64,000 nucleotides of DNA, from contig JAKQKX010000073.1 in the NCBI GenBank assembly GCA_029560465.1, positions 79,411 to 143,410 of the forward strand, read 5' to 3'. The DNA is from Candidatus Omnitrophota bacterium. Lineage in GTDB: Bacteria; Omnitrophota; Gorgyraeia; Zapsychrales; JANLHA01. The notes beneath the pieces are model-generated. The model made no database searches. It worked only from the letters and a program-made list of their open reading frames with translations, and had not been told where the DNA came from. Of this stretch, positions 4,640 through 63,300 are shown piece after piece. The translations under genes and the position numbers were made by a program. The first letter of the stretch is position 1. Each line of letters begins with the position of its first letter.

Positions 4640-4643
4640 GCAA

Positions 4644-24000: not shown

Positions 24001-24009
24001 AATGCTATA

Positions 24010-24162: not shown

Positions 24163-24326
24163 AAAATGGCAAAAATTATAAAAATTATAGGAGGAGCAGA
24201 AAAAAAACTAAATAGTTTTTTGTTGAATTCTTTCAGCTTGTTTCAAAAAATTCCTTCCACTTGTATTCGAGGGCACCAGTTAGCCCATTGTTTCGTTAAT
24301 AATCTGGTTAATTTCTAGAAAAATAT

Positions 24327-39300: not shown

Positions 39301-42300
39301 CTAAGGGAGAAGCGGGCGATGGCAAAGGTTCTTCTTCTCCTGTTGCCTATACGAAAGACGGGACCAGGATTTATTTGGTTGAGAATGCCGATGTGATTAA
39401 AAAAGGAAGAAATGTTATCGCTTATCAGCACAATGCTGGTGTTGATGGGAAGTCCATCATTGTGGCGGTATATTCCGGATCCGCGGAAGCTGCTTTGGGC
39501 CAGATATCAAAACAGCTTTCCGCCTATAACGCAGCCCAGTTTAACAGCGCCGGTGTCAAAACTGGGAAAAAGAATGTCTTCTCTTCTAAGGGAGGGTGGG
39601 TTAATAGAGTGTTTTCTCGCTTGGGGGGAGGGGAAGTCTTAGTAAATGGTGAAACAGCCAGGGGGGCTGTTGTATCTAAAATTTTAGGTATGTTCGTTGG
39701 TAAAGGTGCTAAAGCTGAAGCAAATATTTTGATCGGCAAGTATGAAAATCTTAAAGGTCAGACACCGTCACAAATTTTATTTAAATATGCAGAGAGCAGG
39801 GGGGGAAAGAGAGGGATAACGAGTGCTGAAAAGATAGCGACCGTTTATTCCTCTATTTATTCCGCAACTGCAGGTGATCGCACAGCCGTGATAAATAAGT
39901 CAAAGTTGACGTCTGGGCAGAAAGAGGTGTTGAAGAGCATGTTATCTGCTTATGATCGTGTGCAGGCTGATCTTTCCTCGGTTCAAAGCACCAGTAGATT
40001 TTTTAGAAGTAAGAAAAGCGCGGCTCTTCAGAGTGTTTTGCTCTCCATGTTGGATATAAACGACTCGATCCTGAATCCTACCAATCCATATGGGAGCAAG
40101 AAAGGGTTGGAAGTGAGACCAGAGCAGGTGGCGGTCCAGATTTTGACTGAGAAAGCCGGCCGTATGCTCGGCGGTGAAGTTTCGCTTGGTAAAACAATCG
40201 CCACAATAAGCGGTATTTTGCAGGATATAAGGGGTGGCCGTGTTTCTTCTTCTAAAGGGAAGACTGTGGTTATTGAATATATATTGAGAGAAGACTTAAT
40301 AGGGCGGTTAAATATAGAGGCCGCCCAGGGGACATTAGATATTTTGAGCGGAAAGGGGAAATTAGGTCTCTCAAACGGAAAAATAGTTATCCGTGACGGC
40401 AAGAATGCGGGCAAAGAGGTTAAAGTTAAGGTTAAAGTTTTTGAGCCACCCACAGAAGGGTCGGCTAATGCCGAACAATACAAAGATTTAGTCGATGTCA
40501 GTGGTGCAGTGGATGCTTCTGGCCGCCGAAGATTTGCTTTTGCAGACGCTAGCCCGGTGGAAGCGGGCGACATTGTTCTGGCGATTCTGGGGCCGAGAGC
40601 ATTTCAGCACAGAGAGTTAGGAATGAAGTATCATTTTAAAGGCGCGCCTAAGAAAGGAATGTTTGGGGCAGGCGAAGGGGTGCAATGGACCCGAGTTAAG
40701 GCGTATGCGGATGATATTGACCGTTTGGTCGCGGAACCCGGGATGCGTTATGCCGGCCGTATGAATATGTCGGCGTTGGCGGATGCGGGATTGAATAAAG
40801 AAGCTTTGGATGGTTTAGCGGAACTGTTGCTGGGGGTATATACTCGGTATGATGCGGCGAAAGGCGGCAAGGTAGGAGGAAACAAAGAAGAAGCCGCCAT
40901 TGGCGAAGCCATGGATCCGGCTTTAAAGCTTTTGGATCCTTCTTCAAGAAAAATATTGCAGACTGCCCAAATTCAGCAATTATATGGACAATTAGTAAGA
41001 GAATTTTATGACAGCGTTACCGGGCCTAACGGAAAAACTAAATTGGTGGCTAACAAGAAAACCCAGTTGTTGGAGAAATTGTTAAATATATCTTCGGAAT
41101 ACCGGGATTTCTCCAAGGCCATGGGAAAAAGGCAAGACGCGGCTTTGCTTTATCTGACGCAGAGTTGGGCTCAGGCGACGTCTGGAACAAAGGACACCCC
41201 TGGCCTTTATAAAACAGGGCGGGATGTGTTCAGTTCTTTCATAGATCGGCATGTTTCTGATTGGGGCGAAGGGTTGATTCTTAATATGGGCGGCGGCGGG
41301 CTTCGTAATCCGGGAACTATGCCCGGGCATAAGGGTTTGGAAATTATGCTGGTCATACGTATGATACTTGAAACAAACCCGAAGAATCAGTCTGCGGAGC
41401 TAAAAGAGTACGTAAAGTATCTTGAGGAAAATATGGGTGTTACGCCGCAGACAATCAAATTAAATACAAAGGCCGGTAAAGCGGAAGCTGTGCAGTATAT
41501 TGTTAACGCCATGGCTTCCACCTCCCAGTTTGATATGAGTTTTGGGGAAGCTTTGCGCGGGAAAGCCGGAGGGGTAAAACCATGGAAGTATCTTGTGGGG
41601 CTTACCGGGACCCCGAGGTCAGCGAAAATAGGGTTTAGTGAATTAGGTTTGGTGTCAGCCATTGTCAGCCAGAGAGCGCCCTTGAGAACCGATTCTCAAC
41701 AAGGGCAGGTGGCTCGTGCGGATGTGGTTGCCTTGACCGGAAAACAACCGGGCAAGGGCTGGGAAGGGATTTTTACAAATAAGAATTTGAACGATAGCCA
41801 ATTGTATTTTGTTGCAAATGCCAAAGACGCAATTAAGGCCTCTTCTCTTCCTGATAATGTAAAGCTCAAACTGATAAGTTTGGCGGAAAAAACCACCACC
41901 TTAACGTTGGCAGGAAAGGAAGGGGTCGTTGGTACTTTAAAACAGAAAATTCAATATGTGGTTAAATTAGCTCAAGGTCTGGAAAAAATTAATGGAGAGG
42001 ATCGTTCCGGGTCCCGGGTTATTTTGGTGTCCCCGTCTGGCGACACCGAGGCGGCCATGATAAACAAGACCTTTAAAAACATGAAAGGGGTTGAGGTTAT
42101 CGGAGTCGGGTTCGGTAGCGACAAGGGTTCCCGTGATGCGGTTATAGAAAAAGTTACGGAGAGAGTCAAAGGCATGACAAAAGACGAGAACAAGGTTTTT
42201 CTCGTCGTAATTGCCGGCGAGTTGTCCGGGTCAAACTTAATGCCCATCGCCAAAGATTTGTCTAACGAGGGGGTCAGAGCTATCCCGGTTTTTACGGACA

Positions 42301-45300
42301 TCAGAAGTGAGGCCGCTTTGCTTCAGTTTATCGGTCGCGCGAGCATGCCCTGGAACCGCTCCGGGCGTGTAATAATGGATGATATAGGGAGCATGGGTAT
42401 TTTTGATATGATGAATACCGGGCTTACGACAGATTTGAGAACAGAGATTAAAACTGTTCAGGCCCAGACGGTGTTGGATCTTTCTAAGGCCAAGGCCGAT
42501 GGAGCCTCCTTTGTTAAGCAGGCGGCAATAGTTGCTAAGGGCGAAGCGAAAGTAGAGCAGATTTTTCTTAAAGCAATTGCGAGGCAGGAAGCTTTTGAAG
42601 CCCGGAACATACGCGGGTTGATCGTTCAGAACAATTTGATGTCGGCGGCCCAGACCACGGAAATTTTAGCCATGGCTGAAAAAGCCGGTTCTGGAGACCG
42701 GACTGGACAGATGAAGGGACAAAAAATAGCGCAGTTGATTTCCAACCGTGCTGCCGAGATCGCCAGCGGTAATACCACCATGGCAAACATAGGTTTTATG
42801 CCGGTTGCGGATTCTAATGTGTTGGGTGGAAATTTTGTGGGGACAGGAGACGGAAGCATCGCGTTATCTCAAATAGGGTCTTGGACACAGAATTTAGGGG
42901 GGCAAGAATCTTTTGATGTAATCCGAGAAGGTTTCAATATAGAGGTATTAGAAGCTGGAATTGGGACGCAGACAATAAATACAAAAGGTGGGAAGGTCTG
43001 GACGATTCCCGGCTTGTCTTTCTCTTTGTTCACTCCTGCGGAGGACAGCAAGAAGCTTTATGCCGTTTATACTGACAGCACAGGAATCGTGACTTCTAAA
43101 GTTGAGCTTGATCAGGATTGGGCGGCAACGCTGAATAAAGAAGGTGGCAGTATCACAATCCCCACAGGAAACAAGAGCGAGACCATGACCCTGACAAAAG
43201 GGGCGAGAGCAGATACGTTTAAGTTGGCGTATGCCTCCACAACAGGCTTCCAAAAAGATTCTTGGACTTTAAAAGCCCAGGACGCCTATACGATGAATGT
43301 GGAAGGTTTTGGCGTCATGCCGATTGCCACGGAGCAAGATCTCCTGTCAGCCCTGAAGAGCACCGACGTGCGCAAATATCAGACAGGCGTGTTGCAGCCT
43401 GTGAGCAGACAAGCGGTTGTCGCTTTGCTGGGTGAGAAATCGATGGGTGACCTGGAAGATATTTTTGAAAAAACAGGGAATCAGGGAACAGAAGTAACCT
43501 TTACGCAAAATTATCAGGCAGGAATTGACCGGGCGGTGAGTGAAGGCACGATAGAAAAGAGCCAGGGTGACGCTTTAAAGAAGATGGCTAAAACTAAAAA
43601 GGTGGCTAATTTGAGCCGTCAGTTCCTGATGCCTGGCAGCGGTGAAGATACTGCTCAGCAGGAGCCGCGGGTGCAGAATCTTGATATAACGGTTCAGTAT
43701 AAAGGGAATAATATTTTGACTCGTAACAAGAGGGGCGGTTTGGAAATTGGGGTGACCCCGATGATCGGTAGATTTGCGAATGCGTCCACGCGTGCCCGGG
43801 CCTACCGTATGATGGCGCAAACGCTCATGTTGAACAATAATTCTCTGGGCGTGGTCAGTCTTTTAGATGCCGTGATAGCGCAGCAGACGACAAAAGAGTA
43901 TTATGGATACACAGCGGATGAAGATATTGACCAGGAAACACGGTTAGCTATTAAGCGGGCGACATTGCTTTCTTCTCGGAGCGCAGAGGCAAAGGCTCAA
44001 ATTAGTGAATATTTGTCAGCAGGTTCTGGCGAAGGGGTAGCAGAGACGGCTGGAAAACAAATTCAGCAAAAAATGGCTAATGCGACCGCCCGGAGATTGC
44101 TGTCCTCTTATGAAACCATGGTGGATATTTATGGGTATATCGCCCCCAGTTTTGTTTATAATGATGCTTATGCGCAGGATTTTGCACAACAGGTAGAGCA
44201 AATTCGTCAAGAGCAGGGAACGGACGCGGTGGCGCGGGTATTAGCGATTGCTCAAAACGCGAAGAAAATAATCAACGATGGTGTTACTCCTTTAAATTTC
44301 CGGCAGAGATATATATTAACAAAGTTGGCGGAATTGGCCGAACCGGAGAACGAATCGAAAGTCAGGAATTTGATCAGTGCGCCGGTTAGTCTGGGGGAAG
44401 GACTGTATTCCAAAGAGTCCGGTGCTGGCATAAGATTGTTATTGCCTGAAGAAATGACAGACCGGGATCAGGGGCGCGCCGCTTATAGCTCGGATAGACA
44501 TGAAGTTCAGGTTTCCATGATCAACCTTGACCTGACCGGAAAGATTAGTGATAAGACATTTTGGGGGTATGATTTTTGGCATGAGAGCGTGGATCACCCT
44601 GGCTTGGACATTACCAATACCATATTGATGACAAGAGTCAATCTGAACGAAGTCGGCGCTCAATTATTATCTAATTTAAGAATGCAGGACGCCACCCTCG
44701 CTGATACAGAAGAAGGGAAGGATTTGCGGCAGTCAACAGACGTGTTTAATAAGATTTTTGGTAATCTTATGGACATTAAGACAGTTAAGAAATTACAGGA
44801 AACATCATTGCCGGAAATGGCGGATATAGCCTTTAAGAAATATAGTCTCATCCAGCCGGAAGGCGTTAAAAGAGAATTAGAAGCTGAAAGATTTGCTTTT
44901 ACCGCTATTAATTTGATGCAGACCGCTTTAAAAAAGGGCGGAGTGGATGTTTTATATCAGCTGGACGATGAACTCAACGCTTCCAATAATAGAGAAGGGG
45001 TCTACACTCCGAATATCTTGGCTAATTATAGTGAAGCTGAGCATGGGGCAAAAATTTATGTGAAAAAAGGTGGCGTGATTGGAATGGGCAAGGAAGTGTC
45101 TCATTTGATGGCGCTTTTCCATGATGGCAACCATGCTTTAAGCGAAAAGAAAGAAACCGCGTCTCCGGGGTATATGTCCGCCAAGGTCGCTGAGTTGCGC
45201 CAGATTGTCAGTGAAATGAATGACCCGAACCTTACGGAAGCCGTGGGCAGGCTTTTGGATCGGTTCCAGGCTATAGGAAATAATAAATATGACCATCCCG

Positions 45301-48300
45301 TAGAGGATTTGATAGTTGCGCTGAATGATACCAGCCGGACAGATATTACTCCCGCGACTATAAAAACCGAATTGGGTCATATTAAGGACCGCGTTTCTGG
45401 AAGCCGGCAGTTTGATCAAACAGCGCAAAGCACACAAGATTTTGTGGTGGCAGTAGATCAGTTATTAGGTCAGGATACTGTCAGCTCCGATGACCTGAGT
45501 CGCCTGGCATCCATGCCTTTGGCTAAAACCGAATTCGGGGCCGGGGTTGAGCTTATGGGACATGTAGCGCCATTTTTATTCATGCCAGCAGAGGCGGGTC
45601 AGTTCCATGGCAATGACGCAGATTTGTTGACCGTCGCTAACGCCATTATTTCCAATGACCAGTTGGGGCAATTTATGCGTCAATATAATGCCGATATCGG
45701 TGTGCCGGTTGAAGCTATTGCAAAAGCTAAGCAAGCTGAAACTTCTTCTCCGATTAGCGGCACAGAAACAACGGCCGCGTCCTCCAGTTCTCCGATTCAT
45801 GTTATAGGCCAAGATAGTATTTTGGCTTTGAATACGGAAGATGCGCAAGAGTTGTTTTTAGGTATCGCAAATGCGAGCCTTGCGGTTCCGCCGGCGTATA
45901 AACAATATGCGCCGCTTATTCCTGATAACTATCAAGGAACTCTTCCTCCGGATGCAGCCTCGGCGGGTGGTTCTGATGGTAAAAAAAGAAAAACATCTAG
46001 AATTACACGAAAGATCCTTTTTGAAGAAGAGGTTACTGCCGGAGAAACAAGAGATAAAGGAGATTCCGGGGACGGTCTTTCTCATAGTTTAGGTCGTCTG
46101 CAGAACAGCAGAGGAGAAAGAAAAGGTCGGACTCGCAGTGGCTTGGAATCAAAAGAACCAACGACAGCAGTGGCAGGGCGCTTTGCTCCGACTTCTTCTG
46201 CGCCCAGAACTTCTTCTTCGTCAAATCAGGGGGTTACGGCGCCATATGCTTTGGATATTATGATGCCGGTTACCTCTGCGTATTACTCGAATCAGTCCGG
46301 ACAGATTTCTTCTGTGTCTTCAAATATAACCCAGCAGCCTTTGGGGAATATCGTTTCCTCTCCGGTTGCCGGTGAAATGCGGCAATTTGGCTCCGTGTCT
46401 TCGGAGTCTATTGTAGATATGACGACCAGAGACCTTTCTGTTTCTTCTGGTTTGGCGCCTCCGGTCAATATGCCAACGCCGACGTTTAAGCAGCCCGCGG
46501 TATCTTCGTCGATTGTTCCGGTGTCCCCTGTTTCCCCTGTTTTATTGCCGTCTTTCCATGTTTCTTCCACTCCGAAAATTACAACCACTGGTTTTAGCGC
46601 CAGCAATATATCAAGCTCTCCGATTAATTATAATGCGAATATCCAGCAGCGGCCCAGTGCGATCGTTAAGTTACCCACGATTCAGGCCATGGCGTTATTT
46701 AACAACCAAAACGAATTGCGGAATATTATCCGTAGTGAAGCGGAAAATGACTATAACCAGTTAGATAACGCCGGGCTTATTGATCTTTTTGTTGACACCC
46801 TGAAAGATAAGAAGATGGGTGTTGACTCGGAGATTTCCGGCCTGCAGAGCATTGAAGTCGAAAAAGCGGACAGTATCTTAGACCGAGTATTGTATGTTGT
46901 TGCCGGTAAAACGTCATCTGAAGTTAAGAGTTTGGGGCTTACGAGCAATGAAGGGTATCCTCAACAGGGTTATCGTATTGGGCAAGCTGGGCCAAAAGAG
47001 ATGCGCGTTGAGTTGGACGTTATGACTCCGGAAGTCGTTATGCCGATGCTGGACCAGGTGAAGAGTAAGGCGGAAGTCAAAGAATGGTTGATTCAGCAAT
47101 TCAGCGTTCAGAGGATGGCAGAGAGCCTGCCGAAGATGGTTGGCGAGGAAAACCTGCAGGCCGGAGTCGGGAGCCATTATCATCACAGTCGCGCCGAAGA
47201 TTATGACCAGGAAACAGCGCAGGCCATGGAAGTTTACCAGATTTCCACGGAATTTTATCGAAACATCCTCGAGGGGATGGCGACGGATAATGTGCAGTTG
47301 TCAGCGATGCCTTTGTCCCCCAGCCCGACGTCCATTGTCGGCCATCTGCAGGATTATCGTCGTGTTTCGACGGGGAAAGATTTCACTAGCAAACAAAAAG
47401 GCATTGCTGGCCAATATCATTCCGAAGAACGCGTCCCGTATTTGACGAAAAGCGCCCGCGCTTTTGTCGAGACCGCCGTTGTGACGGCCAAGATGAACGA
47501 AGTCAATAGAAGAGTGCTCGAAGATAAAGGGTACAGGGAAGGCATTAAGAAAGATGTTTTGACAAAAACAGTTGTTAAGATGAAGCAGGCGGGCAATTTG
47601 ACGGATGAGCAAATCAAACAAAAAGTCGCTGTTTTGGATAAAGTGATCGGAGACGACGCTTTCTTCCCGGCGGACTTCAATGTTTCTTATACAAAAGATG
47701 CGGGCGCGTTTAAAGAAGTGTTAGAAGCCAGTTATGAAGTTTTTGTGGGTGAGCTTGATTTGCCGGAAAGCATGTCCAGCCGCGCTTTGGCCGCATACCA
47801 GGAATACAATGCCACCGTAGACAAAGTTAAATCTTTATCGGCGAATGACAGCACCCAATTAACCGAAACTCAACAATCCTTGGTCAGCGCGGTAAATAAC
47901 TGGGCCAATGTTTCCACTTTGGATTTCGTTCAGGCGATTAACAATAAGAAGCAAGCCATTGATTTTTCTGGAATTCAAAGCAACCTCTCTGCCCAGAGCG
48001 CATCTTCTCCTGTTAGTATTGAGCAAGCCAAACAGGAATTTAATAAAGCCGTTCGGAGTTATAACGAAGCGGTGGAAAGCGGAAACCGCCTCTATGATGT
48101 GCGTCCGATTGTTAAGGGGATGGCGGCGGCAAACAGGGAATTGAATGCCCTCCCCACCAGCAAAGAAAAGACCGAAATTAGCAAGAAGATCAATCAGGGA
48201 AGTCAGCAGATGTTATTAGAGGGCATAGAGGGCGCCCCGTCGGTCATTAATCGGTTAGGCAAGGCGATCAGTCGTGACGAATATACCCCGAAGGGTCAGG

Positions 48301-51300
48301 AAAAAGCGCAGGTTCAGGAAATTATAGAAATGGCCGCAGTTCAAATGAAGCAATTGGAAGCAGAGAACGGCAAGGCGGCGGTGGCTAATATTCGCCGGGA
48401 CTTCAATGACAGTGTCCGTTCGATGATGGATAAGATTGAAGTTAGCCCGGAGGTCAAGAAAGATATAAGGTTAAGCAGCTATGAACAGAAAAATCCGGCG
48501 ATGTACGGATGGCTGACACAGGCGATCAACGAAGTGGATGAAGCAGCGAATGATGCTCAAGGGCCTTTGTCACACGGGATTACTTATGTGGTCAAAGGTG
48601 GAAAGATATACACGGATGGAACAAAGGCCCCGCACGCCACCTTTATGAATGAGAAGAATTATCCGGAGTTGGGTGGCTTGAAGACCGGCGGCGCCGATTA
48701 TATAGGGTATATGCGGGTCGGCAAACAAAACGGGAAATTGGTATTGGCGGTTGACAAGGGGTCTAATACGGCCAACAGCAGTGCCCAATTGAGAGACTTC
48801 TCTCGTAAGATTGGCGAGTTAAAACGGGTATTAAATGACTTGGGAATTCAAGCCATTGTTTCGGTCAATGGCCGCGGGTTAGAAGCCGATGGTACGTCCT
48901 TAAACGGCCTGAGAGCCCAGAATTATATAACCGATGCGCCCACTAATATTGTTGTTTCTTCCGCGATTACAAAGATGGCGGCCGGTGATGTTTTACGGAC
49001 TCAGGGCAAAAATCTTTGGGCTAACCCGGCGGTGCAGGATACGGCCGTGTATCTGTCGCAGAACGGGTTGGATGAGAGCTTCCAGCGTGTGGAAAAATCT
49101 TCTCTTCCGGCTTACATGGAAGTCTACGAGAAAGACGGGATTCAGATTATTCGTAAGGAATTAACCCGTGAAAACGCCAATGAAATTAGGCAATTAGCGC
49201 AGGCGCAACGCCAGTCGAATGTCCCTGTTTTCTTTGCCAAGGGTGACACGGAGCATTATTATGAAGTTAATCTTGCTCCCGAGGGATATACGACAGCTTA
49301 TCAGGTTGTCCGGAATTCTCCTGATAGATTGGCGAAACTAGCTGAGATTCAGCCGTATATTATGGCGGCGGCTGACGACGGGTTGAGATTTGACAACAGC
49401 CAGTGGTTTGTCCATAATCACCTGCATCCTAAGAATATTATGATCAAACAGAACGATGCCGGTGAAATTGAAGATGTGAAATTTATCGATTGGAAAAAGT
49501 TAAGTAGCTTTAACCCTGCGGCGAAACCAGAAACAGCGCTTCTTCAGCAGGGCGACCAGAACGCGTTAAAAGGCGTCAAGGTTGAGGATGTGGGGTTAGA
49601 GTGGTTTGATTTCACGGATTACGATTTGAGTGGCACTGACTTTACAAAGACCGCCAAGATTTTCGGGTCTTATGTGGATCAGGCCAAGACATCTCAAGAA
49701 ACCAATGTGCCGGAGATGGAAGTTGGTTTGAACTTTGTGGCGTTGGTTCCAGCTATCCCGGCTAACAGGAAAGACGCTACGCCGCGTTTAAGAGGCGGAA
49801 TTCAATCGTCTCCTGTTCAGTTGACCCAGAAGCCGACCGCGGAACAATTCTTGGCTATTAAACAGGCGGTTGCCAAGTCTGATTTCTTCAAGGAAAAGAG
49901 CATTGTCAGCATAAGATCCAATGCCTCTGAACAAGATAAGGCTATTTATGAAGACGGGAAATTAAATGTTAACTTAAATAATTTTGATCTTAAAACAGTT
50001 AATGCCCTCCAGTCTTCCATGGGGGTTGGCGTGGAGCAGGCTTATACGGAATACGCGACGGTTGTTTATAACCATGAAAAATTCCATCGCGAAACGATCA
50101 GTAACGAAAAGAAACAGCGTAGTGCTCAGCCGAGAAAATCCGGCGATTATACCCAGCGCGAGTTGCAGGGCATTATTAGTGAGGCAAGAAAATCCGAGGA
50201 TGATAATATCCGGACGGCGGTTGCAGAAATTGATAAGATTATGTCGCAATCTTACCATTACTCTCCGCAAGACGCAGATTTCGGCGAAGAGATGTTCGCT
50301 AATTATATAGAGAATGGCGGATTAATGGTAAGAGGGGTTTCTGGATCTGGAACCCGGGACGTAAAATTCGTGCTGGCGGCCAACGCTTTAATGCAGAATT
50401 TGGTTAAGCAGAATAAGATTTCCAGGGCTTTTGTTGATCGGATCGCGGAGAAAGCCGAAACAAAGGACACGGCCTTTGATCCTATGGCCACGGATGCGGC
50501 CCGTTTCGTCGCCAATCCCGAATCTTATGCTAAGACGATGTTGGTTGCGGCCAAGAGCAGTTCTGTTTCTTCTCCGATTGAAAGTGATGATTATTCTGAC
50601 TTTGAAGCGGATCGGCCGTATCAGCCGTATACGAACGTGGCGGCTCGGGATGTTTTACAGCCGTTATTCGCCGGAACGCCCGACGCTAGTTCCTTGTCAT
50701 TCCTGGATGTAGGGTCTGGTTCCGGCATTAACACGGTTGCAGCTGCTTCCGAATATAAGGTGAACGCGATTGGTATAGATCCTCAAGCCAGCAATGTGCA
50801 GTTCGCGCAGAATTTGGTTAAATCTTATGCCGGCAATTTAAAAGAGCAGGGCGCTTTTGAAAAACCCGGGGTTGTGGATACCCAGATTGAAGATTTTGTC
50901 GCGCAGGGTGTTCAGCCGAAATCGGTTGAAAACGCGAATTTTGTCGAAGGCAGCGCTACGGATCTCCCGTTCTCCGATAATTCCATTAACAGAATCGTTT
51001 ATACGGATGTTGAGCCTTTCATCTATGATCAAGAAGGTAAAGATAAAGCTATTGATGAAATTTTAAGAGTGGTCAGTAAACAGGACGGGAAGATTATGGC
51101 CCGACCTAAAGCTGGGGCCAAAGAAAATGACGTGGCTGTCTTTGTCGACCGCTTCCGGAATACCGCCGCCCAGAGAGGGCTTGCCTTAGACGTCCAGCGA
51201 ACGGAGATCGCTGGGTCGAACAATGGTATTCTGTTCACGGTTCGGCAGTCAACCCCGGCTTCTTCTCCGATTAACGTGGCTCAAATAGACTCCTTAGAAA

Positions 51301-54300
51301 CACTTCTTAAAGGGGATCTGAAAGGGAAGAGAATTCTTGAAATCGGGCCGGGCGCCAAGACCGATTTGATTGAAGCTTTGGTGGATGCCGGTGCGGAAGT
51401 TTGGGCGGTTGATTCCAGGATTATAGGTCGGGGTGAAGAAGCGCTTATTTTTAACAATCCTGATAAGCAGAGCGGAGTGGTTGCTGGTGCTCAGGCGCAA
51501 ATAGCCGACATGACGCAGTTTCTTAAAAATTATATGACTCAAAATCCGGACAAACCTTTTGATGCCGTTATTTCAAGAGGGGGCTTTGAGATCGGTTATG
51601 TGACGCAGGAAGGGAAAGCGCAGTTCTTAGAGAAAGATCAAGTTAAGACTTTGACGGACACATTAAGCCTCTTAAAAGGTGGCGCGCTTAAAGAAGACGG
51701 CGTGTTGGTGGCGGAAATGCATTGGCCGGAAATGTCCTTGGCTGCGATGGCTCCAGGAAAGATCGAAGAGGCAGGGTTCCGTAATAGATCTGTGACAGAT
51801 AAAGTGCTTGTCCTTCAGCCGGCTCGGGTGAGCGAGGCGAAGTCTTCTCCGATTTCTTTGGGTGATTCTGAAAAGCGTTCCGCCCCTGCTCAAATGACTC
51901 GCGCCCAATTGGAAACAGAGGTTCAGGCTTTGAGGAGTTTAGTTATTACCGATCCATTAACGAAAATTTATAATCGTGCCGGTTTTGAGAAACGTTTGGC
52001 AGAAGATGTTTCTGTTGTGAGTCGCGACCGCCGTCACCGGCTACAGGTTGTTCTTCAGGATTTGGACCATTTCAAGGCAGTAAACGACCTCTTTGGACAT
52101 CAGGTCGGGGACAATGTTTTGGCAGGCGCGGCTCGCATTATGCAGGAAAGTATTCCGGAAACCGCGACGGTTGGCCGTTGGGGTGGAGAAGAATTCACGC
52201 TTTCCTTGCCGGGCATGAGCGCTGTCCAGGCAGTAGAAGTGGTTGATGGTATTCGGAGCAATCTCGTGAACGGCGTTTTGCCGGGTGAAGACCAGTTGAA
52301 TGACCGCGAGTTTGTCCAGAATGCTATTACCAGCATGGTCAAAGCTGCTGAAACGGGCCGATTGACTAAACAGGAAGCAAATAATTTTAAAGCGGCGCTT
52401 ATTCATCAGTTTGAAGAGCAAGGGCTTTCCGGCGTTACTCCTACGACGGCAGCGGGAGAAGACGGATTAAAGGTCTTTTTGGTTGGCATGGAAGGGATTT
52501 CTAACATGCCGACTGCGGAACAGATGCGGCAAATGCCGTTGGCCGAATTGCCGTATGAACAGTTGAGCCGTTGGGTGAGTACCAGTGGACAGGAAGGGGA
52601 AGACTTCGCCATTTCCATCCCTGGCGTGAGCGCGGCCGAGGCCCAGAAGATTGTCGGGGATATCCGGGTGAAATTGAGCTCCGAGAGCATCCCGGAATTC
52701 GTCCAGTTGAATGACCGAGATTTTGTCCAGCAGAAAATTCGCAGTTTCGTGGATGATGCCGTTGCCGGTAAGCATACGCAGAAAGAAATCAGTAAGGTCA
52801 GGTCTGCTATTGTTCACCAATTTAAGGTGCAGGGAATCGAAGTTGAGGGTTCTCCAACCCCAGCGCAGATGATGCAGATGCCGCTGGCCGAGTTGCCTTA
52901 TGAAAAATTAGACCGCTGGGTGGTGACAAACAGCGCGGGTGTGGCGACGTTTGATCCGAAGGAAGACACCATTAATACGGCAATCTTGCACGCGGATGTG
53001 GCTTTGGCGCAGGCTAAGTCGGAACGCGCTAAGACCCAGATTATTAAGAATGCCATCGGGGAACGCGACGCCGGTATTGAATTTTCACACAGTTATAGTC
53101 AGGGTGAAGCGATAGTTGAGCAGATGACCCGTGAAGACCTGGAAAAAGAAGTCGCGGTATTAAGAGATCTGGAAAGTTTTGATCAGTTGACGAGGGTTTA
53201 TAATCGCCGCGCTTTTGATAAAAAAGTTGAAGAGGCCGTGGCCTCCGTAAGAGCTCCTGGCGAACGCCGTAAACGTTTGAATTTTGTTATGGTGGACATT
53301 GATTATTTCAAGTCCATCAACGATTTGTTTGGGCACGATGTGGGCGATGATGTTTTGCGCGGGTTGGGTGTCGTGGCCAAGGCTTCTGTCCGGGACAGCG
53401 ACAAAGTAGGCCGCTGGGGCGGAGAAGAATTCGGCATAGTTATCCCCAATGCCAGTGCCATGGATACGGTCCGCATTGTGGATAGAATCCGGGCAGGGTT
53501 AAGAAATGCGATGATTCCGGAATTATCAGCTTTGAATGACCGGAACTTTGTGCAGGGGAAATTAAGAGAGTTTGTTGATGCGTCCCTGTCCGGGAAAAAG
53601 ACCGAAGATGACGTCACGGCAACTAAGGTCGCCTTGATTCATCAGTTCCGCGTTCAGGGTTTTAAAGATTTGCCTTCTAATGAAGCGATGATGGACATGC
53701 CTCTTGTCGAGCTTCCTTATGATCAGTTGGACCGTTGGGTAGTGACGCATAGCGCCGGAGTCAGCGACTATAATGCGGCTCAGGAAAACCCGACAGAAAA
53801 CATGGTTTTGAAGGCGGATCTCGCTTTATATTCGGCAAAAGAAACCCGTAGCAACACCCGCGTTTATGAAACCAATGTCCAGCAGGCAGTTAATAAATAC
53901 GCTAAAGAATTAGCGCATAGTTCCAAGCATTTTATTTGGCAGTTGGAAACCGTTGCTGACACTGCCGTGCAGGGAGCTCCACAGAGCCGGGAGGCAAAAA
54001 GCGCCTTTAAGATCGCCCAGGCCCATGGCCGGAAAGTGTTGGCAACGTATGGTGTCACCGAAGGGCATGAAGATTTTCAGCCGCTAATGGATTCTTTTAT
54101 CCAGACTCTTGCCCAGGAGCGCGGACGCGTTTCTTCGTCTCCGGTGGAACAAACTTTGGGGAGCGTAAGTTCTCCTGTTCCTGTCGAACCGTTCAAGGCG
54201 CAGCTTTCCTTTGGGCGCGGCCGGAAGAGCGATAATGTTGTTAGAATTCTTGGGGAACTCGATAAGACCGATTTGAAAGAACAGCCGCAGCAATATCTTG

Positions 54301-57300
54301 GTTTGTTGGTTTCTTATTCTCGTGAAGTTAATGATAAGCCCGAGCGGGCGATTGAGGCTAGGGCGGAAATCACCCGGGCAAAGACGTATATTAAAGAGAA
54401 CTATATCGCCTCCGCCGATGATTTGGTTAAATACAGCGATGCTTTGGACATATCGCCTAAGGGCCAGGCTTTGGTTGCGGCTTATACCAGGCTTCGTGAT
54501 GATGAAATTCACATTACTTTGCCGCGCATGGCTGATGTCGCTAAGATTTCCAACACCGAAGCGCAGGAAATATTCGACGCAGAAATCCGGCCGGTAATAA
54601 AGATTGCTGAGCAGAAGCTCCCCGCCGATCAGGAAATCATGGCGATTATGGATAGTGCGGAAGCGGATGACTTGGAAGAAAAGGCTTTTGCGAGCCTTGA
54701 GAGCGATATCCGGGACGCGGTTAATAAAGGCGAGTTTGCGACGTATGATGATGTGGTGGCTGTCACGCAGGGCATGACACAGTCGACGAAGCACCGGGTG
54801 TTGGGTAAGCTGCAGAGCTGGCAGTTGTCCGGCAGAGATTTTAAGAATATCCAAGAGGCGGCCACGCAAGCCGAGGCCGTGGCGCCGCGGCCAGTCCAAG
54901 TGATGGGGCATGTGGTCAGAGTTCATAATCAAGTTAAATCGTCAAAGTTGCAGAATTTACAGTCTAACGACGATTTGGTGCCCAGGATCCAGGAATTTTA
55001 TGCCGGGATTGAAGGCTTCCACTTAAAAGGTAATTTAAAAGGGCTTGAAAGAGCGCACATAGGCAATCAGCGGGCTATTTTCAGGCAACTTAATAATGGC
55101 GGAGTTGTCCTCCTCGGCGTAGAAAACAGGGGTGACATTGATTATGGTGCTTATGAAAAATTCACTCCGGCTAACATGTCAGACGAGGAGTTGCTGGCGA
55201 AGTCTTATGAGTTAACAGAAAAAGTTTCGTCTCCGATTGAATCTCAGGATAGAATTGCCGTGGTTGTCTCCCGGGATTCTAAAGATATTGATTATGAAGA
55301 TCTCCGTACCTTGACCGGCGCAGTAAATAATGCGTCCCCAGATCAGCGCTCTGTGGTTTTGGCTAAGATTTCCGATGTGATGAAGTCGAATCCCAAGATA
55401 GAGAGCGAAATTCGATCGCAGGGTGAAGTCGTTCTTGATGTTCAGCCGCCGGCCGGGTATAGCGAACTCGTGACTCTCACGCCGGAACAGGTGCAGAATC
55501 TTTCTCCGAAGATGGCAAACTTGAGTCCTTACCGTACCGAAAGAGCTATCTTGGCGGTTGTGGCGCAGGATCCGGTTGTGTTAAAAGGTGACGGGACTGC
55601 TTATGATGGAAACAACCGCATTATTTGGGCGCAAAAAATGAATGCGCCGTTGAAGGCATACGTTCCTAAGGGGCAGAAGGAAATGCTTTTGGCGTCGTTA
55701 TCTCAGTCCAGCAGAGATAAGGGAACAGCCAGCAGCAGTCCGGTTGCGTGGCAATTAACGCAGAGTCCGGCTCGTCAAATGCCGTTAACTTCCCAGGAAA
55801 GAGCGCATTCTTTAGAAACAAAAGAGATCGTTAAACGAGGCGGTATGTTGCAGGTGTCCTCTTCTGTTGTGGCACGGCCATCGCCCATGGCTATGGCGCA
55901 GGCTCAGCCGGGCGGTATGATGCAGGTTTCTTCCGCGGTTGTCGAAAGGCCGTCACCGGTGGCTATGGCGCAGGCTCAACCAGGTGGATTGATGACCGTC
56001 TCTTCAACGGTTGTTAAAGAACAACAACAGTTTCCGGCGATATCCGTGCCGACCATAGAATCGCCAAAACCGTTTGAAGTGACAGCGCCTGCGATTATTG
56101 CGACACCGGAAGCCCCGGCCGTTACTTTGCCGATCACAACAATGCCGGTTTTCATGCCCTCTCCTTTAAGTGAAGCGCCGCGGGTTGAGGCTCGGCCGGC
56201 TGAAATAGCCTCGGCTTCGCGCAAAGAGGGCCGTTCTTCTCGTCAGAATAGTGAGTCATCAAGCGCAAAACCGGAAAAACGCGGTGGCATGATGCAGGTG
56301 TCCTCTTCTGTTGTGGCACGGCCATCGCCCATGGCTATGGCGCAGGCTCAACCGGGCGGCATGATGCAGGTTTCTTCCGCGGTTGTTGAAAGGCCGTCAC
56401 CGGTGGCTATGGCGCAGGCTCAGCCGGGCGGCATGATGCAGGTTTCTTCCGCGGTCGTTGAAAGGCCGTCTACGCAGATGGAAATAACTCAGCCGGGCGG
56501 CATGATGACAGTATCCTCTTCGATTATTGAGAAACCTCAAATTGCCAGTCTTGAGGCCGAAACATCTAGACCGTTTGAAATGACGGCCGTCGCTCCGGCC
56601 CTTTCAGCGCCGGTATTTCCAGTTCTATCTTCTCCGTTAAGTCAGAGCCTTATGCAACAAACAGAACAACCTTCCGTCCAATCTGCTCAGGCGGCTGATT
56701 TTATGGACAGGTCGGCTATTCAGCAGCAAGAACGCTTATCCGTTCCGTCCCAAACAACGATGTCTGGTGTTCGCCCGACGCCATCACCCGTGCGTAATCT
56801 TAATCTGACCAGGCCTGAAATGAACTTTGCGGCTATTCCTAAACCGGAAAAACGAGGCGGGATGCTTACGGTGTCTTCTACTGTTATTGACCGCCGGTCA
56901 TTGCCGGTTTCCGCCCAAGCCAAGGTTTCCAATCCTGAAGAAGATGCGGGCTTGTCTGCGGCAGAGATGGTTACTGAATTGCCGGTTAGTGCGCCCTTGT
57001 CTGCACCGATGCCGGTTCTTTCTGCTCCTATCGTTCTTCCCGCGTTCACAGGTGGCCCGTTTGCTTCTGAACAGCGGACTTTGACTACGGAGATTTCAAA
57101 AGATTTAGCGCAAGCAAATACTTATTATGATGCTCGCAGCCAGATCCAGCAGGAACAAGAAGGCGAGATACAAGATTTGTCATTCTGGGACATCACATCT
57201 GGTGCTATGAGCCAGGCTGTTTCCTTGGATGAGAAAGTCCGATTGGCTCATGATGCGAATAAATCCGTTGTGTTGTTTGAGCAAGGAAGAACCCTTCCTG

Positions 57301-60300
57301 AATTGTTGTCTGCCGCTAATAAGACAGTTGCCGAGACATCCCGGCCAGTCTATGTTTATGTTCCGACAATGGAATCCATGGAAGTGGAGCGTGTCGCCAC
57401 TCAGATGGGGATAAATTTACCGAAAGAGACTTTGGGGCAGATTTCACAACTTATGGCTGAAAAACCGCTTGTTTTGGGCGGCTTGGATACTTTAATCAGC
57501 GCTGTGCCGGAATTGGAAAAATACGATATCGTGCTGGTCAGGAATTTCATGATGGCTCTTCAGCAGGCCAGAAAAGCCCCGTTTGTGTCTTACCAGAAGA
57601 GCCTTGATGGAGAAATAATTTCTCAACGATTAGCGTTTGAGCAGTTGCCTAAGAATTATCCGATAGTTTTGTTAGGAAACGACGAGACCCTTAAACCGTC
57701 TTCCGAAGAGTTGCGTAAATATATCGTTGCCCGTAAACCATATTTGGATAATGAGCTGGTTCAGCATATTTTGCCGACAACAGAGCGGCTTCAGTTGGCT
57801 AAAGGGGAAATTTTGGAAATTGCACCGGTGTCGTCATCCATTTCGACAACTGCGGCAGAGAAAGAAGGGGCGGCGATTATTTATGCGGCCAGCCTTTCGG
57901 TTTCTGAGAAGATGGGTGTGATCGATTTTATCGGAAGATATCCCGAATTTAAAGATGGGACAACGAAGGTTGAGATAATTCGCGGGAAGGATCTTGAGTC
58001 AAAAATTTATATGGCTGATGACACGGGGAAGACCCGGACGGTTCTTATTCCCGAAGATGTGTTCTATAGTGTGATTTCTAACCCGGTTTTGGGAGAAAAG
58101 AATCAGCGGATTGGCATAGAGAAGAGCGACAGGGTTGATCTGGCCATGAAGACCGGGAAATATGCCCATTCGTTGCCATCGGAATATCATACAGTTGATT
58201 TAGGTCAGGTTTTGAAAAAGCATGACTTGACCTCCGGGTTGCAGATTACCGATGAAAATCCGCTTTTGGTTGCTTATGATCGCCGCGATTTTGACGTAGC
58301 TCAGGATCAGATGGAGAATATTTTGGTCTCTTTGGCGAAGACGGTTGATGTTTCCGATTTATCGCAGATCACCCGTCTCCAGGTTGTTCCTTCTGACATG
58401 AATCTGCCGGCGAAAATTATGTTGACGGACATGAACAAGCAAGGACAGCCCAAGACATTGATTTTGGCACAGTCTTTGATACAGAATCCCCAGGAGATTC
58501 AAAACGCTTCTTTGATGGTTGATAGTCGGAGTTCTATCGTGAGATTGGCAGAAAAGCAACGGGCAGAGACGATTGCCCGGAATCAGATTGATCCGGACGC
58601 AATTACGGTCGTACGCCTGCCGGGCGGGGACAGGGCTTATATCGAGAAGAATTTTGTTAGATTTGTCGACGACCGTGGCCGGGTCCGTAAACAGCAGATG
58701 GAGTTTAAGGGCGTTAATATTATTGAAGTGGGGCGCATTATTGCCGGGTTGAGCGATCAGCAGCGCAGGAGCTTGTACTTGATCGAGGCGGACAAAACAG
58801 CGGATATTTATGTGGATAAGGCTTCTGGAGAAAAGTGGCTTCCGGTTTCAGTTCATCTTGGTAGCACGAGATATTTGGCTTGGGCCAGATTTGATGAAGA
58901 GATGGAGTTGGCTGTGCCGGTTAACGGAAATCAATTGATTTACGCTGAGAAGATGGTCATGTCCGCGGTCAATGAAAGTGGCCGTCCACAGTTTAAGCCG
59001 GTCGGGTTTGATAAGCGCATTGATTTCGATACGTTAATGCCCGGCGCCGACTATTCGGTGGGTGACTATGTGGAATCGTTAACAAGGCAATTAGCGATGG
59101 AAGAAAACATTTCTATCGATTTTGTCAAAATTGATGATTTCAATTATTTTGTTAAGCCCACAGGCGTTCGGATTATTAAGAATGATAAAGGCCAGACGTA
59201 TTTGATTCTTGGAACCGAGTATGTTAAGGCCCAGAACGACCGGATCGCAGAGGCCCAGAAATATGATTTGGCCATCACAGATCCGTTAGGGATGTATCGA
59301 GCATTTATCGAAGAATCTCAGGCGAAAGAGCTTGAGGTCAAAGATGCGTTCGGTGTTTTTGTTGTGGCTGTGACGAACAAAGTCGGTCAGATTTTAACCA
59401 GAGATTCGAGATCTGGTGGGCAGGATCAAATCGCGTTGAAAGATATTCCGATCCTTTATACCACATTAACCGGGGAGCAAATTATTGTGGCTTCTACCAA
59501 GAAGTCTGATATTGAGCAATATCAGTTTGATATTGCTATTGATCGCGGCATCACGACACGTAAGGAACAGTTGGCCGAACCGAAGGTGTTCGAAGCAGTT
59601 CCGAGTTCAGCTCCTGTGACCACACTGCCGTTGTTGCCGGGCACAGATACTTCAATTATGCCTCCGATCGGCCTGTTGTCTCAGGCTGTTCCGGTTCAGG
59701 CAAGTACGACAGAAACAGTAGAAACAGCACAGATTGAGAAATTGGCTTTAGCCAGTATCCCGATTAGCGATGAAGAGCTTAATGGGCAATTATCAAAGGT
59801 GGGCAGTACGGTTGAGATGCTGGATATAGAAACAAATGAGGTTGGAAGAATCGTTTCTAACGTTCAGTTCAAGAATCCGTTCAGCGGTCAAGAAGTCCGG
59901 TTGGCCAGCGTAGAGATGAAGAATGGGGATGTCCAATCGTTTACTTTTGATGAGTTTAAGAAAAAGAATATTCGTATTGTTCGTCCTTCTGCCGAGCAAC
60001 CTTTGTCAGAAAAGACTAAAATCGCTTCGGCTCAAAAACAGCTTTCAAAACCGACTGCGGTTGAAATTCGACCGGCAGCTTCACCAGTACGTAATTTGCC
60101 GTCGACTGCTACGGAACGAACATGGGTAGATGCTCAGGCGACGAGAAAAGACCGGATGAAAGAACGCCAGTCTGGCGGGTTGTTAATGATGTCGGCTATG
60201 GTTATTATGAATCCGGCTGACGCGGCTGTCCAGGAAGGACAGTTTGAAGAGGCTAAAGATTCGTCATCGCCGATTATGGTGGCGTTAACCAATCCGATGG

Positions 60301-63300
60301 TGTTGCCGGAAGATGCTAGGGCTGGCGGTGTTCGAAAAGACAGCGTAAAGTATGTTGAGGTAGCCCGAGTGTCCTCTTCTCTGAAGCAGGCGGCTCCCGC
60401 GAAGATCACGGAAGTTCCTATGTTGGCAAAACAAATGCCGAATATAGCCACGATAAGTAGTTTGTCTCTTAATAATCGTGCAGCGTATGATATTTTAAGA
60501 ACCGCCATGACGCAGACCATGAATTCTCGGCAGGATAGAGCGGACTTATCTAGGGAAATGAACACTATTTTGGCAAGGGCGGCTCAGGAAGGGCAGCGAG
60601 TCATTAGCCCCGAAGGCTATCCGTTAACTGAAAAAGCCTTACAACAGTTATCAAAGCTCAAAACTAAAGAAGATCTTGCCGCTTTGGTTGGGAAAGACGG
60701 AGCTGAAAGCCTGTGGGATCAATTAAAAGACGCCTTGAAGATGCTTTTCGGCGGAGAAATCAAAGCGGATGAAAAAGAAGAGAGTGTTCACCTGGCTAAA
60801 GTCGACCAGGAGGCCATGCAGGGTGAAGGGGTGTTGACATCACCACAATATATAGAAGAAGGAACGGTGTCGACAGAAACAGGCGTTCTTAAGTCTGACG
60901 TGACTGTATTGAAGGAAGCTTCGAGGGCTCCTCCGGAGGAAATGAAAGCCGATGTAACGATTGCTGAAACAACGGTTAAGAAAGAGGATCAAGAAGCAGC
61001 TCCGACGCTTGCAACAGCGCCTCCGTTAGCGCCGCCGATTGTTAGTCCGGAAACATTGGTACCTCAATTACCAGCACAAACAGCCCCGTCTTCACCGATA
61101 TTTGTGCCTGTATTGCCTATTGCCGCATTTACTCTGGGTAAGGCGACGACCTTGCCGTCTAACCAAAAGAATCCGATAGAAGGACGTAAAGAAACCGGAA
61201 CAAAGGGCATTCCTGTTACGAGTATGCCATTTAGTTCCTCAGTTCCTGTTGAGGAAGAGCCTGTGCCTGGAGGCGGATCAACAGGGCCTGTGAGTGGCTC
61301 TACGAAAGCCAAGACTGCTTTAGTTATTGCGTATGTCAGGGATATGGCAGCGAATAAGGGAGCTGTTGCCAGCGCTCCGGTTGTTAAACCCGAAGCGAAG
61401 CGACAGCATGTAGATTTAAGTACTGACAAAGAATCTAAAAAGAATTTTAGAAGTTCTGGTTCTAGTCCTACGCCGTGGGGCGCTGCCGAGACTTCCTCAA
61501 GTCTCCAGGCAGGAAAATCCGAAGAGAGGACAAGACTTGAACGTGTTGTAATGGTTGTAACGGTTGGTGTGCGTACGGCTGAAACGATAGCAGGTAATGA
61601 AGAGTTAAAAACTAATTGGGTGAGAAACGCCAATCGCGGTAACGATAACGCGAACGGTGTAAGCAGCGCAATCGTTGAATCGGCTCGTGTGACCATCGCT
61701 GCATCGAAAGCGGTCACATCAGAGTTAAAAACTGGTTGGGTGAGAAACGTCAGCCGTAGTGACGATAATACGGTTGGTGGTGGCAAAGAAATCGTCAATA
61801 TTGTAACTAGCAGTACGGTTCTCTCGGCGAAGACAGAAGCCGAGGATGAGTTAGAGACTCGATGGGTGAGCGCCGATCGCGAAGGCGTTAGCGCGATAGG
61901 TGTAGAAGGTGCATACGCCAAAGCCGGTTCTTTGAGAACGTCTGGTATTAATGGCTTAGCTGCCATCAATTGGTTTGGCCTCTTCGGAGGTTTTGCCAAG
62001 GCAATTAAGGCTGTTTTGACTGGATGGTTACAGAGAATTGCTAGATCTGGGTCTGGTAACGGGTCTAGAGAGGGTACATTACCGGAAGCTGTGCCTGCAG
62101 CCAGCTATAGCCTTGAGGGTTCTATCGTCAAGGTGGCTGAAGGAATATTCGTGGCTGCCAAGTCTACGCTGACGAAAGTTGGTGAGTGGCTGAAGCAGTA
62201 TGCGAACCGTGTTGTAACGATTCTTAGAACGTACGACAGCAAATGGACTAATCGCTCTGTACTTATCATTGGCGTTGTCGAGGATACGACTACAAGTGAA
62301 GGTGTGCATGCATCTGCGCTTGGAAGCGAATCTGGTAGCATGGCTGGTGATAGGTCTGGTACACATTCAAATGATGTGTTTGGTGTGTCCAGTGTAATCA
62401 GTAATGGATATGACTATCTGTATAGTCGTATTGATTCCATTGCTGGTGTTGAAACAGTTGTATCTCGTTCTGTTAAAGGTAGTGCTGACAGATTAGCGGT
62501 ATTGCTTAGTGCCAATGCTGGTAGTGTGGCTGACGTAACAAGCGATTCTGGTGTTCTGTCCAACAATGCTCTCAGGGGTTCGGCTGTAAGTGTTGCTGAT
62601 GTCTCTGAGAAAGAGTCCTTTGGTGCGCTTGATCAAGAGATTGGTCAAGGATATGTAGCTGTTGATGTAAGCTATATCAAAGGTTTGCGGTTTGATGGAT
62701 GTGTAGCTTCTGTGCTCAGTAATGGGTATGGATTAAGCACATTGGCATCAACTTCGATTCTTGGCGCTTTGGTCAGTGATGATCTGAGTTCTAAGAATGT
62801 GACCTTTGTGTTAGGTTATGTGAATAATCTGACTGCTACATCTAAGGTTGCGTATGTAGGTGCTATAAAGGGTATTGCTGGTAAGGCTGCCATATCGTTA
62901 GTTGCGCTGAAGCAGTTACATGAGGTTGAGGCGTTAAGCGGTTCTGTGGATCTGTATAGTAGAGTTCTTGGAGTGTCTGCCTCTATAAGGGTAAGTACTT
63001 CCAAGGATAAAGCCTTTACGCAAAAGCTTGATCGAAGTAACGTTCAGGCCATTGTTGCTGAAGCAGTATTAACTGAAGGTGTGTTGGCTGGAGAAGGTGT
63101 CCTGGCTGAAGGAACTGAAGGTGTTCTGATGCCGGTTGAAGCTATATCCAGTCCGGTTCTTAGTATACAGCCTGAAAAGGTCGAAGGTGCTAAGAATGCT
63201 GCCTTTGGTGTGAGGCTTGGTCAAGAAATTGATCAGGTAATACCTGCTGAAGATGCGTTCAATGTATCTGCTGAGGTTGTGCTTAGCAGCGTTAATGAAT

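Follow-up and report, generated by a model that had tools for sequence, protein, structure and literature searches.

The question raised by this locus is what two diguanylate cyclase-like domains are doing far inside a giant protein, and why each of them appears to have been pulled apart. The locus lies in a stretch of 64,000 nucleotides from the Candidatus Omnitrophota bacterium contig JAKQKX010000073.1 (the window, from whose first nucleotide positions are counted), where nucleotides 51945-53870 encode two GGDEF domains. A first-pass annotation had described each domain as split by a repeat-bearing insertion of about 250 amino acids (aa), which might be a novel sensor or regulatory element. 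GGDEF cyclases, the enzymes of cyclic diguanylate (c-di-GMP) synthesis, normally require a sensor domain that drives their dimerisation. In our study, the sequence points, with fair probability, to two complete canonical GGDEF diguanylate cyclases placed in tandem, which would act as half-sites in cis within a membrane-anchored giant protein.

The flagged stretch was contained in a single plus-strand open reading frame (ORF). This frame opens with the ATG at 24327, a short way behind a stop at 24309, and extends past the end of the window, encoding more than 13,224 aa. The two GGDEF domains in it were recognised by PF00990 (E 3.8e-69, 232 bits against a cut-off of 23.8) and TIGR00254 (239 bits against a cut-off of 37.4). 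When the Pfam boundaries were checked, both PF00990 matches ended at profile position 113 of 161, right after alpha3. The missing C-terminal part (the beta4 strand 'VTxSAGV' and the alpha4 helix 'ADxALxxAK') was located downstream in both domains by alignment, and the final helices are thus displaced as had been proposed. In domain 2, 'RWVVTHSAGVSDY...KADLALYSAKETRSN' ('RWVVTHSAGV...KADLALYSAKETRSN') was aligned by phmmer, run against PDB sequences, with the final strand and helix of the GGDEF domain of PadC (5llw). The best database relatives of domain 2 were ordinary GGDEF proteins, with 34-49% identity over only 41-69% of the query.

The window domains were aligned by MAFFT with 59 ordinary GGDEF proteins (61 sequences), and all 21 invariant columns were kept in both domains. 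These columns comprised L, N and R of the DxLT/NRR region, D.D.FK, ND, GH, GD and R.GG.EF, followed by the G of beta4 and the D and K of alpha4 in the C-terminal part; the nearly invariant T and S of beta4 were likewise present. Both domains contained 'GRWGGEEF', whose R, G, G, E and F fall in invariant columns, and 'DLDHFKAVNDLFGHQVGD' and 'DIDYFKSINDLFGHDVGD' supplied the equivalents of PleD D327, K332, N335 and D344, again all in invariant columns. The catalytic signature claimed for the two domains was therefore found in full: the DxLT turn, the DxD metal site, the Lys, the guanine-binding N and D, RxGGEEF and the AD...AK helix. At the alpha4 'AKxxGRN' site the Lys was invariant and 'GRN' read 'TRSN' or 'ERAK', with the phosphate-binding Arg one position earlier. 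In Hypr GGDEF domains, which produce cyclic GMP-AMP (cGAMP), a Ser or Thr replaces the guanine-binding Asp (PleD D344). This specificity was rejected for the window domains since the Asp ('VGD') was retained in both, and by the same residue they are to be classed as canonical, guanine-specific GGDEF domains of the c-di-GMP type.

The inhibitory sites (I-sites) Ip, consisting of RxxD and PleD R390, and Is have been defined previously (PMC8041772). Domain 2 contained 'RDSD' five residues before GGEEF ('RDSD-KVGRW-GGEEF') and an alpha3 Arg ('VDRIR') at the position of PleD R390. Both features were missing from domain 1, which has 'PETA' instead of RxxD and a Gly at the R390 position ('VDGIR'). 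GGDEF domains with intact I-sites are known receptors. One may thus ask whether the two domains serve mainly to bind c-di-GMP (or GTP) and to control the giant protein's other modules or the secretion/pilus machinery encoded nearby, as the complete primary I-site of domain 2, with RDSD five residues before GGEEF and the alpha3 Arg, would permit (PMC8041772). We consider this quite improbable, because receptor-type GGDEF domains usually contain degenerate active sites, whereas here both active sites and both guanine pockets are intact and conserved.

The distance from GGEEF to the AD-helix was 269 aa in domain 1 and 131 aa in domain 2, against about 65-70 aa in ordinary GGDEF domains. A split of about 250 aa thus describes domain 1 and does not hold for domain 2, in which only some 65 extra residues were present between alpha3 and beta4 relative to homologues. 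The extra ~200 aa of domain 1 were made up of two insert units and a duplicated beta3/alpha3. Altogether three paralogous units, each consisting of GGEEF/beta3, alpha3, the insert and 'RWVxT', were about 47% identical to one another; domain 2 contains one and domain 1 two in tandem, the second of which opens with a degenerate GGEEF ('EGEDF'). The duplicated strand and helix after GGEEF that had been noticed in domain 1 is real and forms part of these units. The two short repeats, 'LNDRxFVQ...HQFxxQG' and 'MPLxELPYxxLxRWV', occurred in exactly three copies each, as first counted, and nowhere else in the 13,224 aa. Since two of the three units lie in domain 1, this domain is best explained as carrying an old internal tandem duplication, from GGEEF/beta3 to the start of beta4, and not a single insertion of 250 aa. 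The duplication leaves an appendage of about 140 aa (insert A and the 'EGEDF' remnant), which is conserved and has no confident fold. Each domain was preceded by its own paralogous stalk helix of about 17 aa, and the complete module of about 765 aa was bounded by 'SSP[IV]' motifs, with a second 'SSPV' at nucleotide 54168. No 'SSP' was found between the two GGDEF domains.

The AlphaFold2 (AF2) model of domain 2 (248 aa, from the 61-sequence alignment) had a predicted local distance difference test score (pLDDT) of 94.7 and a predicted TM-score (pTM) of 0.90. It contained alpha3 at residues 111-127, insert helices at 139-154, 160-176 and 185-190, beta4 at 208-214, alpha4 at 222-240 and beta5 at 244-247. 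Its core superposed on GcbC over 160 of 164 residues at 2.0 Å. In the model of domain 1 (424 aa), the core had a pLDDT above 90 and superposed on GcbC over 159 of 164 residues at 1.8 Å; insert B exceeded 87, and insert A with the duplicate ranged from 27 to 70. In both predicted structures the displaced helices complete the GGDEF fold. The Foldseek TM-score of domain 2 reached 0.88 when normalised by target and only about 0.6 by query; the low query-normalised value indicates that the insert is extra and unmatched in solved GGDEF structures. The canonical connection at this point is a short alpha3-beta4 hairpin, which we take to be 'SGSPFTVAHGREML' in PleD. In the models, the insert extends the alpha3-beta4 loop by three helices in a compact arrangement and is not a nested domain.

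These models bear on the idea that the GGDEF fold harbours, in the insert, an independent domain for sensing or for ligand binding. Its conservation in four lineages, its invariant polar and aromatic residues (H, Q, Q, Y, W) and its confident modelling as a compact helical unit would fit such a role. The insert is, however, only about 65 aa long with three helices, and its second half ('PLxELPYxxLxxWV') continues straight into beta4, as expected of an elaborated loop and not of an autonomous domain. No match was found in Pfam families, among solved structures searched by Foldseek or among PDB sequences, where the insert profile gave only a chance hit (E = 1), and no cofactor-binding motif was seen; weak Pfam matches inside the inserts to DMAP_binding (E 0.016) and Phytoreo_S7 (E 0.09) were rejected as noise. 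Neither features that point to ligand sensing nor relatives of the insert were found in these searches. A sensor role for the insert is without support, and we regard it as very improbable. Pfam scans likewise detected no sensor domain and no Response_reg match in or next to the GGDEF module.

Conservation was studied by a DNA-pattern scan of 185,579 species genomes, made with the insert profile, and by a separate scan of metagenomes. The species genomes yielded one locus, L005, on a 348-kb contig of a metagenome-assembled genome labelled 'uncultured Planctomycetales'. Over the giant gene it was about 90% identical to the window in nucleotides, and in the GGDEF region 612 of 642 aa were identical, without gaps; the C-terminal parts of both domains were unchanged. 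The ratio of nonsynonymous to synonymous substitution rates (dN/dS) between the window and L005, obtained by Nei-Gojobori counting, was 0.058 in the GGDEF region, against 0.114 over 5,958 aligned codons of the giant gene. It was 0.065 in insert A, 0.022 in insert B, 0.138 in insert C and 0.10 in the duplicated beta3/alpha3. The strongest constraint in the region was found in domain 1, with 0.041 in the N-terminal part and 0 in the C-terminal part. A fragment of 1,885 aa from a third assembly (P0131) contained the same architecture; the contig encoding it was not found. These ratios show that the architecture of the GGDEF module is under purifying selection.

The same comparisons decide whether the split domains and the internal repeat could be an assembly or frameshift artefact or a decaying pseudogene. 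Repeat-bearing giant genes are prone to misassembly, and a gap of N was indeed seen in L005 and frameshifts elsewhere in L006, a related metagenomic contig. The architecture was, however, repeated without gaps over 642 aa in L005 (95% aa identity) and in P0131, both of them independent assemblies, and a dN/dS of 0.058 is not that of a decaying gene. Artefact and pseudogene decay are excluded on these grounds, and we leave them hardly any probability.

The insert was found to be very rare. When 1.84 billion representative proteins were searched exhaustively by HMMER with the insert profile, only two clusters were obtained: P0131, the same protein (440 bits), and P0132 (48 bits, E 1.3e-7). The source of P0132 was L006, a Logan contig of 2.6 kb, in which, despite frameshifts, 'RLGGEEF' can be read together with the same insert and the C-terminal part of the GGDEF domain. 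The metagenome scan gave L007 (Ga0172380_10001581), a giant ORF open at both ends with 6,255 aa within the locus. In its module at 9107-10261, a REC domain and a coiled-coil stalk are followed by one GGDEF ('RYGGEEF'), which bears a homologous insert of lesser length (39% identity). Homologous inserts were therefore present in only two further lineages (L006/P0132 and L007), at the same position and always in GGDEF domains. The residues P5, A43, H46, Q47, Q51, G52, P66, L67, L70, P71, Y72, L75, W78, V79 and T81 were invariant over the five insert copies, and the conserved motifs of the sub-lineage were 'HQ[FL]xVQG' and 'PLxxLPYxxLxxWVxT'. A word-indexed search of 5.8 billion protein clusters with the insert and extended profiles gave nothing; it also missed P0132, as its index is without these fragments. 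A literature search for a GGDEF 'helical insertion' or 'tandem GGDEF' found nothing relevant. By these sequences, both domains belong to a rare GGDEF sub-lineage with a grown alpha3-beta4 loop. The insert marks this sub-lineage in four lineages so far, with a giant ORF wherever the context is available, and is a useful signature for finding related modules.

Only a few Pfam matches were obtained in the giant ORF: Peptidase_C39, a weak EcKL kinase-like match around aa 8318-8393, SAM (S-adenosylmethionine)-methyltransferase matches around aa 8788-8921, and the two GGDEF domains. SecA, dockerin and HEAT domains were without a Pfam match in the 13,224 aa visible, the C-terminus of the giant protein lying outside the window. 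A Kyte-Doolittle scan found six hydrophobic, transmembrane-like peaks at aa 44-897 (window 24456-27017), flanking the C39 domain, and a single weak peak, at 4705, in the remaining ~12,300 aa. Since the hydrophobic cluster is confined to the N-terminus, the scan suggests an N-terminal membrane anchor followed by a huge soluble body. By this crude scan, no transmembrane-like segment was present within thousands of residues of the GGDEF module.

The GGDEF domain has the topology beta1-alpha1-alpha2-beta2-beta3-alpha3-beta4-alpha4-beta5, and for catalysis two of these domains, each loaded with GTP, must face each other across a two-fold axis (PMC8041772). Since two opposed half-sites are required, the most economical reading of the tandem pair is that the two domains would supply both within one chain, most likely as a cis pseudo-dimer, which would spare a low-copy, membrane-tethered giant protein the need to dimerise. 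Product feedback inhibition would act through domain 2 only, the one domain with a complete primary I-site (RxxD and the alpha3 Arg). The helical inserts would most likely provide a lineage-specific structural, docking or dimer-orienting surface and not a ligand sensor; the I-site Arg is on alpha3 and the insert departs from the fold right behind this helix, so that orientation or docking of the partner domain or of another module is plausible. The module would be cytoplasmic and would synthesise c-di-GMP there, because GTP is needed and the adjacent methyltransferase and kinase-like modules depend on SAM or ATP.

Several points weigh against the tandem cyclase reading. The cis pseudo-dimer is itself inferred, and in the L007 relative only one GGDEF follows the REC domain, so that the tandem layout is not obligatory for the sub-lineage. 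The shifted alpha4 Arg, common to the whole insert-bearing sub-lineage, may have an effect on catalysis, and the appendage of about 140 aa in domain 1, modelled with low confidence, could interfere with it. The topology was derived from the crude hydrophobicity scan, and published topology predictions place many domains of giant proteins outside the cell.

Some of these points may also be taken to mean that domain 2 is the sole working cyclase, pairing with the domain 2 of a second protein copy in trans, and that domain 1 is a pseudo-enzyme kept as a scaffold or allosteric partner. Domain 1 contains the 140 aa of insert A and its duplicate, modelled at pLDDT 27-70, is devoid of the RxxD site and the alpha3 Arg, and the related L007 protein, having one GGDEF, must pair in trans. 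Every invariant catalytic residue is nevertheless kept in domain 1, its N- and C-terminal parts are the most constrained of the region (dN/dS 0.041 and 0), and its core model fits GcbC as closely as stated above (159 of 164 residues at 1.8 Å). We consider a pseudo-enzymatic domain 1 rather unlikely and retain the reading of two working cyclases in tandem. With both active sites intact and tethered to the membrane as part of a protein exceeding 13,000 aa, such a pair would amount to a natural single-chain cyclase, making c-di-GMP locally for a molecular machine. Taken by itself, the finding adds a modest structural variation to a domain that is very common.

The 'SSP' motif that bounds the module, nearly always followed by I or V, had 19 occurrences in the giant protein, where shuffled sequences gave 3.15 +/- 1.8. 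All 19 copies lay at giant aa 5003-12941 (window 39333-63158) and none in the first 5,000 aa; the other ORFs of the window contained only 2 in 6,050 aa. In L007, 16 were found against 1.0 +/- 0.9 expected (3077-11677), and the motif was also present in L006. In the window the motif bracketed a methyltransferase (giant aa 8748-8979), a second, weak one (aa 8979-9173) and the GGDEF pair (aa 9173-9937). In L007 it bracketed a Tse3-like muramidase (aa 2718-3036), REC (3036-3155), GGDEF (3155-3417) and GNAT (3745-3889), the muramidase module coming before and the GNAT module after the REC/coiled-coil/GGDEF module. A cause at the DNA level was rejected, for the Ser codons differ between the lineages (TCT TCT CCG in the window and TCC AGC CCG in L007), and the constraint on SSP is therefore at the protein level. 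That REC and its GGDEF are separated by a delimiter in L007 favours a linker or modification site over obligatory cleavage. Individual scans of the SSP-delimited modules, among them the neighbours of the GGDEF module on either side, revealed neither PilZ nor any other c-di-GMP effector domain.

SSP[IV] may thus be regarded as a candidate inter-module linker, modification site or processing site. A wider scheme, which we think unlikely as a whole and offer tentatively, would divide the C-terminal ~8,000 aa of the giant protein, and those of its relatives, into single-domain enzyme and signalling modules split by SSP[IV] processing or modification sites; the GGDEF pair would be a self-sufficient single-chain cyclase released or positioned thereby, with the inserts as its pairing surface. 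If true, it would be the first handle on the subdivision and local c-di-GMP regulation of giant proteins. West-Roberts et al. stated that the cleavage points and module boundaries in giant proteins are unknown (10.1101/2023.11.21.568195), and for this reason the delimiter may be a more useful lead than the GGDEF insert. The positions of the delimiters and of the other parts of the module are given in Table 1.

Table 1. Position of the giant ORF, its N-terminal peptidase domain and the parts of the GGDEF module in the window.
Feature	Position (nucleotides of the window)	Strand	Remarks
Giant ORF, host of the GGDEF module	24327..64000	+	3' end beyond the window; from ORF call, Pfam and hydrophobicity scan
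Peptidase_C39, N-terminal in the giant ORF	24972-25217 (aa 216-297)	+	Pfam, E 4e-9
'SSPI' delimiter, start of the GGDEF module	51843..51854	+	giant aa 9173-9176
Stalk helix before domain 1 ('MTRAQLETEVQALRSLVI')	51894..51947	+	helix 16-31 in the 424-aa AF2 model; paralogue of the domain 2 stalk
GGDEF domain 1, N-terminal part, from DxLT turn to end of alpha3	51948..52274	+	DLDHFK, NDLFGHQVGD, RWGGEEF (nt 52182-52196)
Insert unit A ('LNDREFVQ...IHQFEEQG...MPLAELPYEQLSRWVSTS')	52275..52586	+	extra variable loop of ~24 aa; low AF2 confidence
Duplicated beta3/alpha3 remnant with degenerate motif ('GQEGEDFAISIPGVSAAEAQKIVGDIRVKLSS')	52587..52682	+	unit alignment; pLDDT <55
Insert unit B ('SIPEFVQLNDRDFVQ...VHQFKVQG...MPLAELPYEKLDRW')	52686..52925	+	helical, pLDDT >87
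GGDEF domain 1, C-terminal part: beta4 'VVTNSAGV', alpha4 'HADVALAQAK', beta5	52926..53048	+	100% identical in L005
Stalk helix before domain 2 ('MTREDLEKEVAVLRDLES')	53124..53177	+	AF2 helix 2-17
GGDEF domain 2, N-terminal part	53178..53510	+	DxLT turn, DIDYFK, NDLFGHDVGD, RDSD (nt 53391-53402), RWGGEEF (nt 53418-53432), 'VDRIR'
Insert unit C ('MIPELSALNDRNFVQ...IHQFRVQG...MPLVELPYDQLDRW')	53511..53744	+	three-helix alpha3-beta4 loop; AF2 pLDDT 87-97
GGDEF domain 2, C-terminal part: beta4 'VVTHSAGV', alpha4 'KADLALYSAK', beta5 'TRVYE'	53745..53870	+	
'SSPV' delimiter closing the module ('VSSSPV'), after a tail of ~90 aa	54135..54146	+	giant aa 9937-9940

Other repeats were present in the giant ORF downstream of the module. 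Two tandem arrays of a 72-nucleotide (24-aa) repeat, 'GGMMQVSSAVVERPSPMAMAQAQP', were found at 55839-55978 and 56286-56470. The P0131 fragment from the other assembly terminates in this 24-aa repeat, which therefore probably breaks assemblies. A divergent repeat of about 35 aa, 'NGVSSAIVESARVTIAASxAVTSExKTxxVRN...', was found at about 61560-61760 and at 18400-18745 in L005, where its copy number was higher and a run of N was present. The stop of the orthologous ORF of L005 at 18745 follows this run of N within the repeat and was rejected as the true gene end.

Upstream of the giant gene, Pfam identified gyrA (C-terminal part), a CN-hydrolase, mdh, a PPIase, RcpC, a secretin-TonB_C fusion and a ParA-like/T2SSE fusion. 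At NCBI, identical copies of these neighbouring proteins carry the name 'Candidatus Omnitrophota bacterium'. RcpC and the two fusions form a Tad/Cpa-like secretion or pilus cluster at 4644-9821, in which RcpC is accompanied by a secretin with a C-terminal TonB_C and by a 720-aa fusion of a ParA/MinD-like (CpaE-like) nucleoside triphosphatase with a T2SSE (CpaF-like) ATPase. Three ORFs of 567, 571 and 1,348 aa (10730-12433, 15280-16995 and 17295-21341) lay between the secretion genes and the giant gene, and none had a Pfam match. Around the 1,348-aa ORF the GC content was locally raised, at 0.52 compared with about 0.45, and the AT skew was negative. The GC content fell to 0.387 at 22001-24326, directly upstream of the start of the giant gene, and a similar low-GC leader has been described upstream of another Omnitrophota giant gene (10.64898/2026.06.04.730025).

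Omnitrophota giant proteins were reported to contain an N-terminal C39 domain and, in many cases, GGDEF domains, with type II secretion genes nearby and pilZ downstream of most giant genes, and most of the proteins to contain a divergent SecA DEAD helicase domain (10.1101/2023.11.21.568195). A preprint from the hyporheic zone described methyltransferase and GGDEF domains in an Omnitrophota giant protein (10.64898/2026.06.04.730025). The window protein shares with the giants of these two reports the host phylum, a length above 13,000 aa, the N-terminal C39 domain, the N-terminal hydrophobic cluster, methyltransferase and GGDEF domains, and upstream secretin and T2SSE-type genes. The presence of GGDEF in giant Omnitrophota proteins and the idea of local c-di-GMP signalling are thus already in the literature (10.1101/2023.11.21.568195, 10.64898/2026.06.04.730025). 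In these two reports, however, GGDEF was given as a Pfam hit only, and the insert, the tandem, the duplication and the SSP modules were not described.

Compared with the canonical diguanylate cyclases (PleD, WspR, DgcR, GcbC 5EUH and PadC 5LLW), the window domains belong to the same Pfam/TIGRFAM family and fold and share the DxLT turn, the metal-binding Asp, the guanine-binding N and D, the GGEEF hairpin and the preceding stalk helix; the RxxD I-site is matched by domain 2. The canonical cyclases contain a short alpha3-beta4 connection, whereas the window domains contain a three-helix insertion of about 65 aa. The window protein further differs from them by the internal partial duplication in domain 1 and by two active-looking GGDEF domains in one chain; it also has no adjacent REC, PAS or GAF domain, and its 'GRN' is altered to 'xRSN' or 'ERAK'. 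The L007 relative shares the order REC, coiled-coil stalk and GGDEF with the REC-GGDEF regulators of the PleD/WspR/DgcR type, whereas the window module is without REC and contains a second GGDEF in the partner position instead. What is new here is the loop insertion, the partial internal duplication and the tandem arrangement of a very well-known domain.

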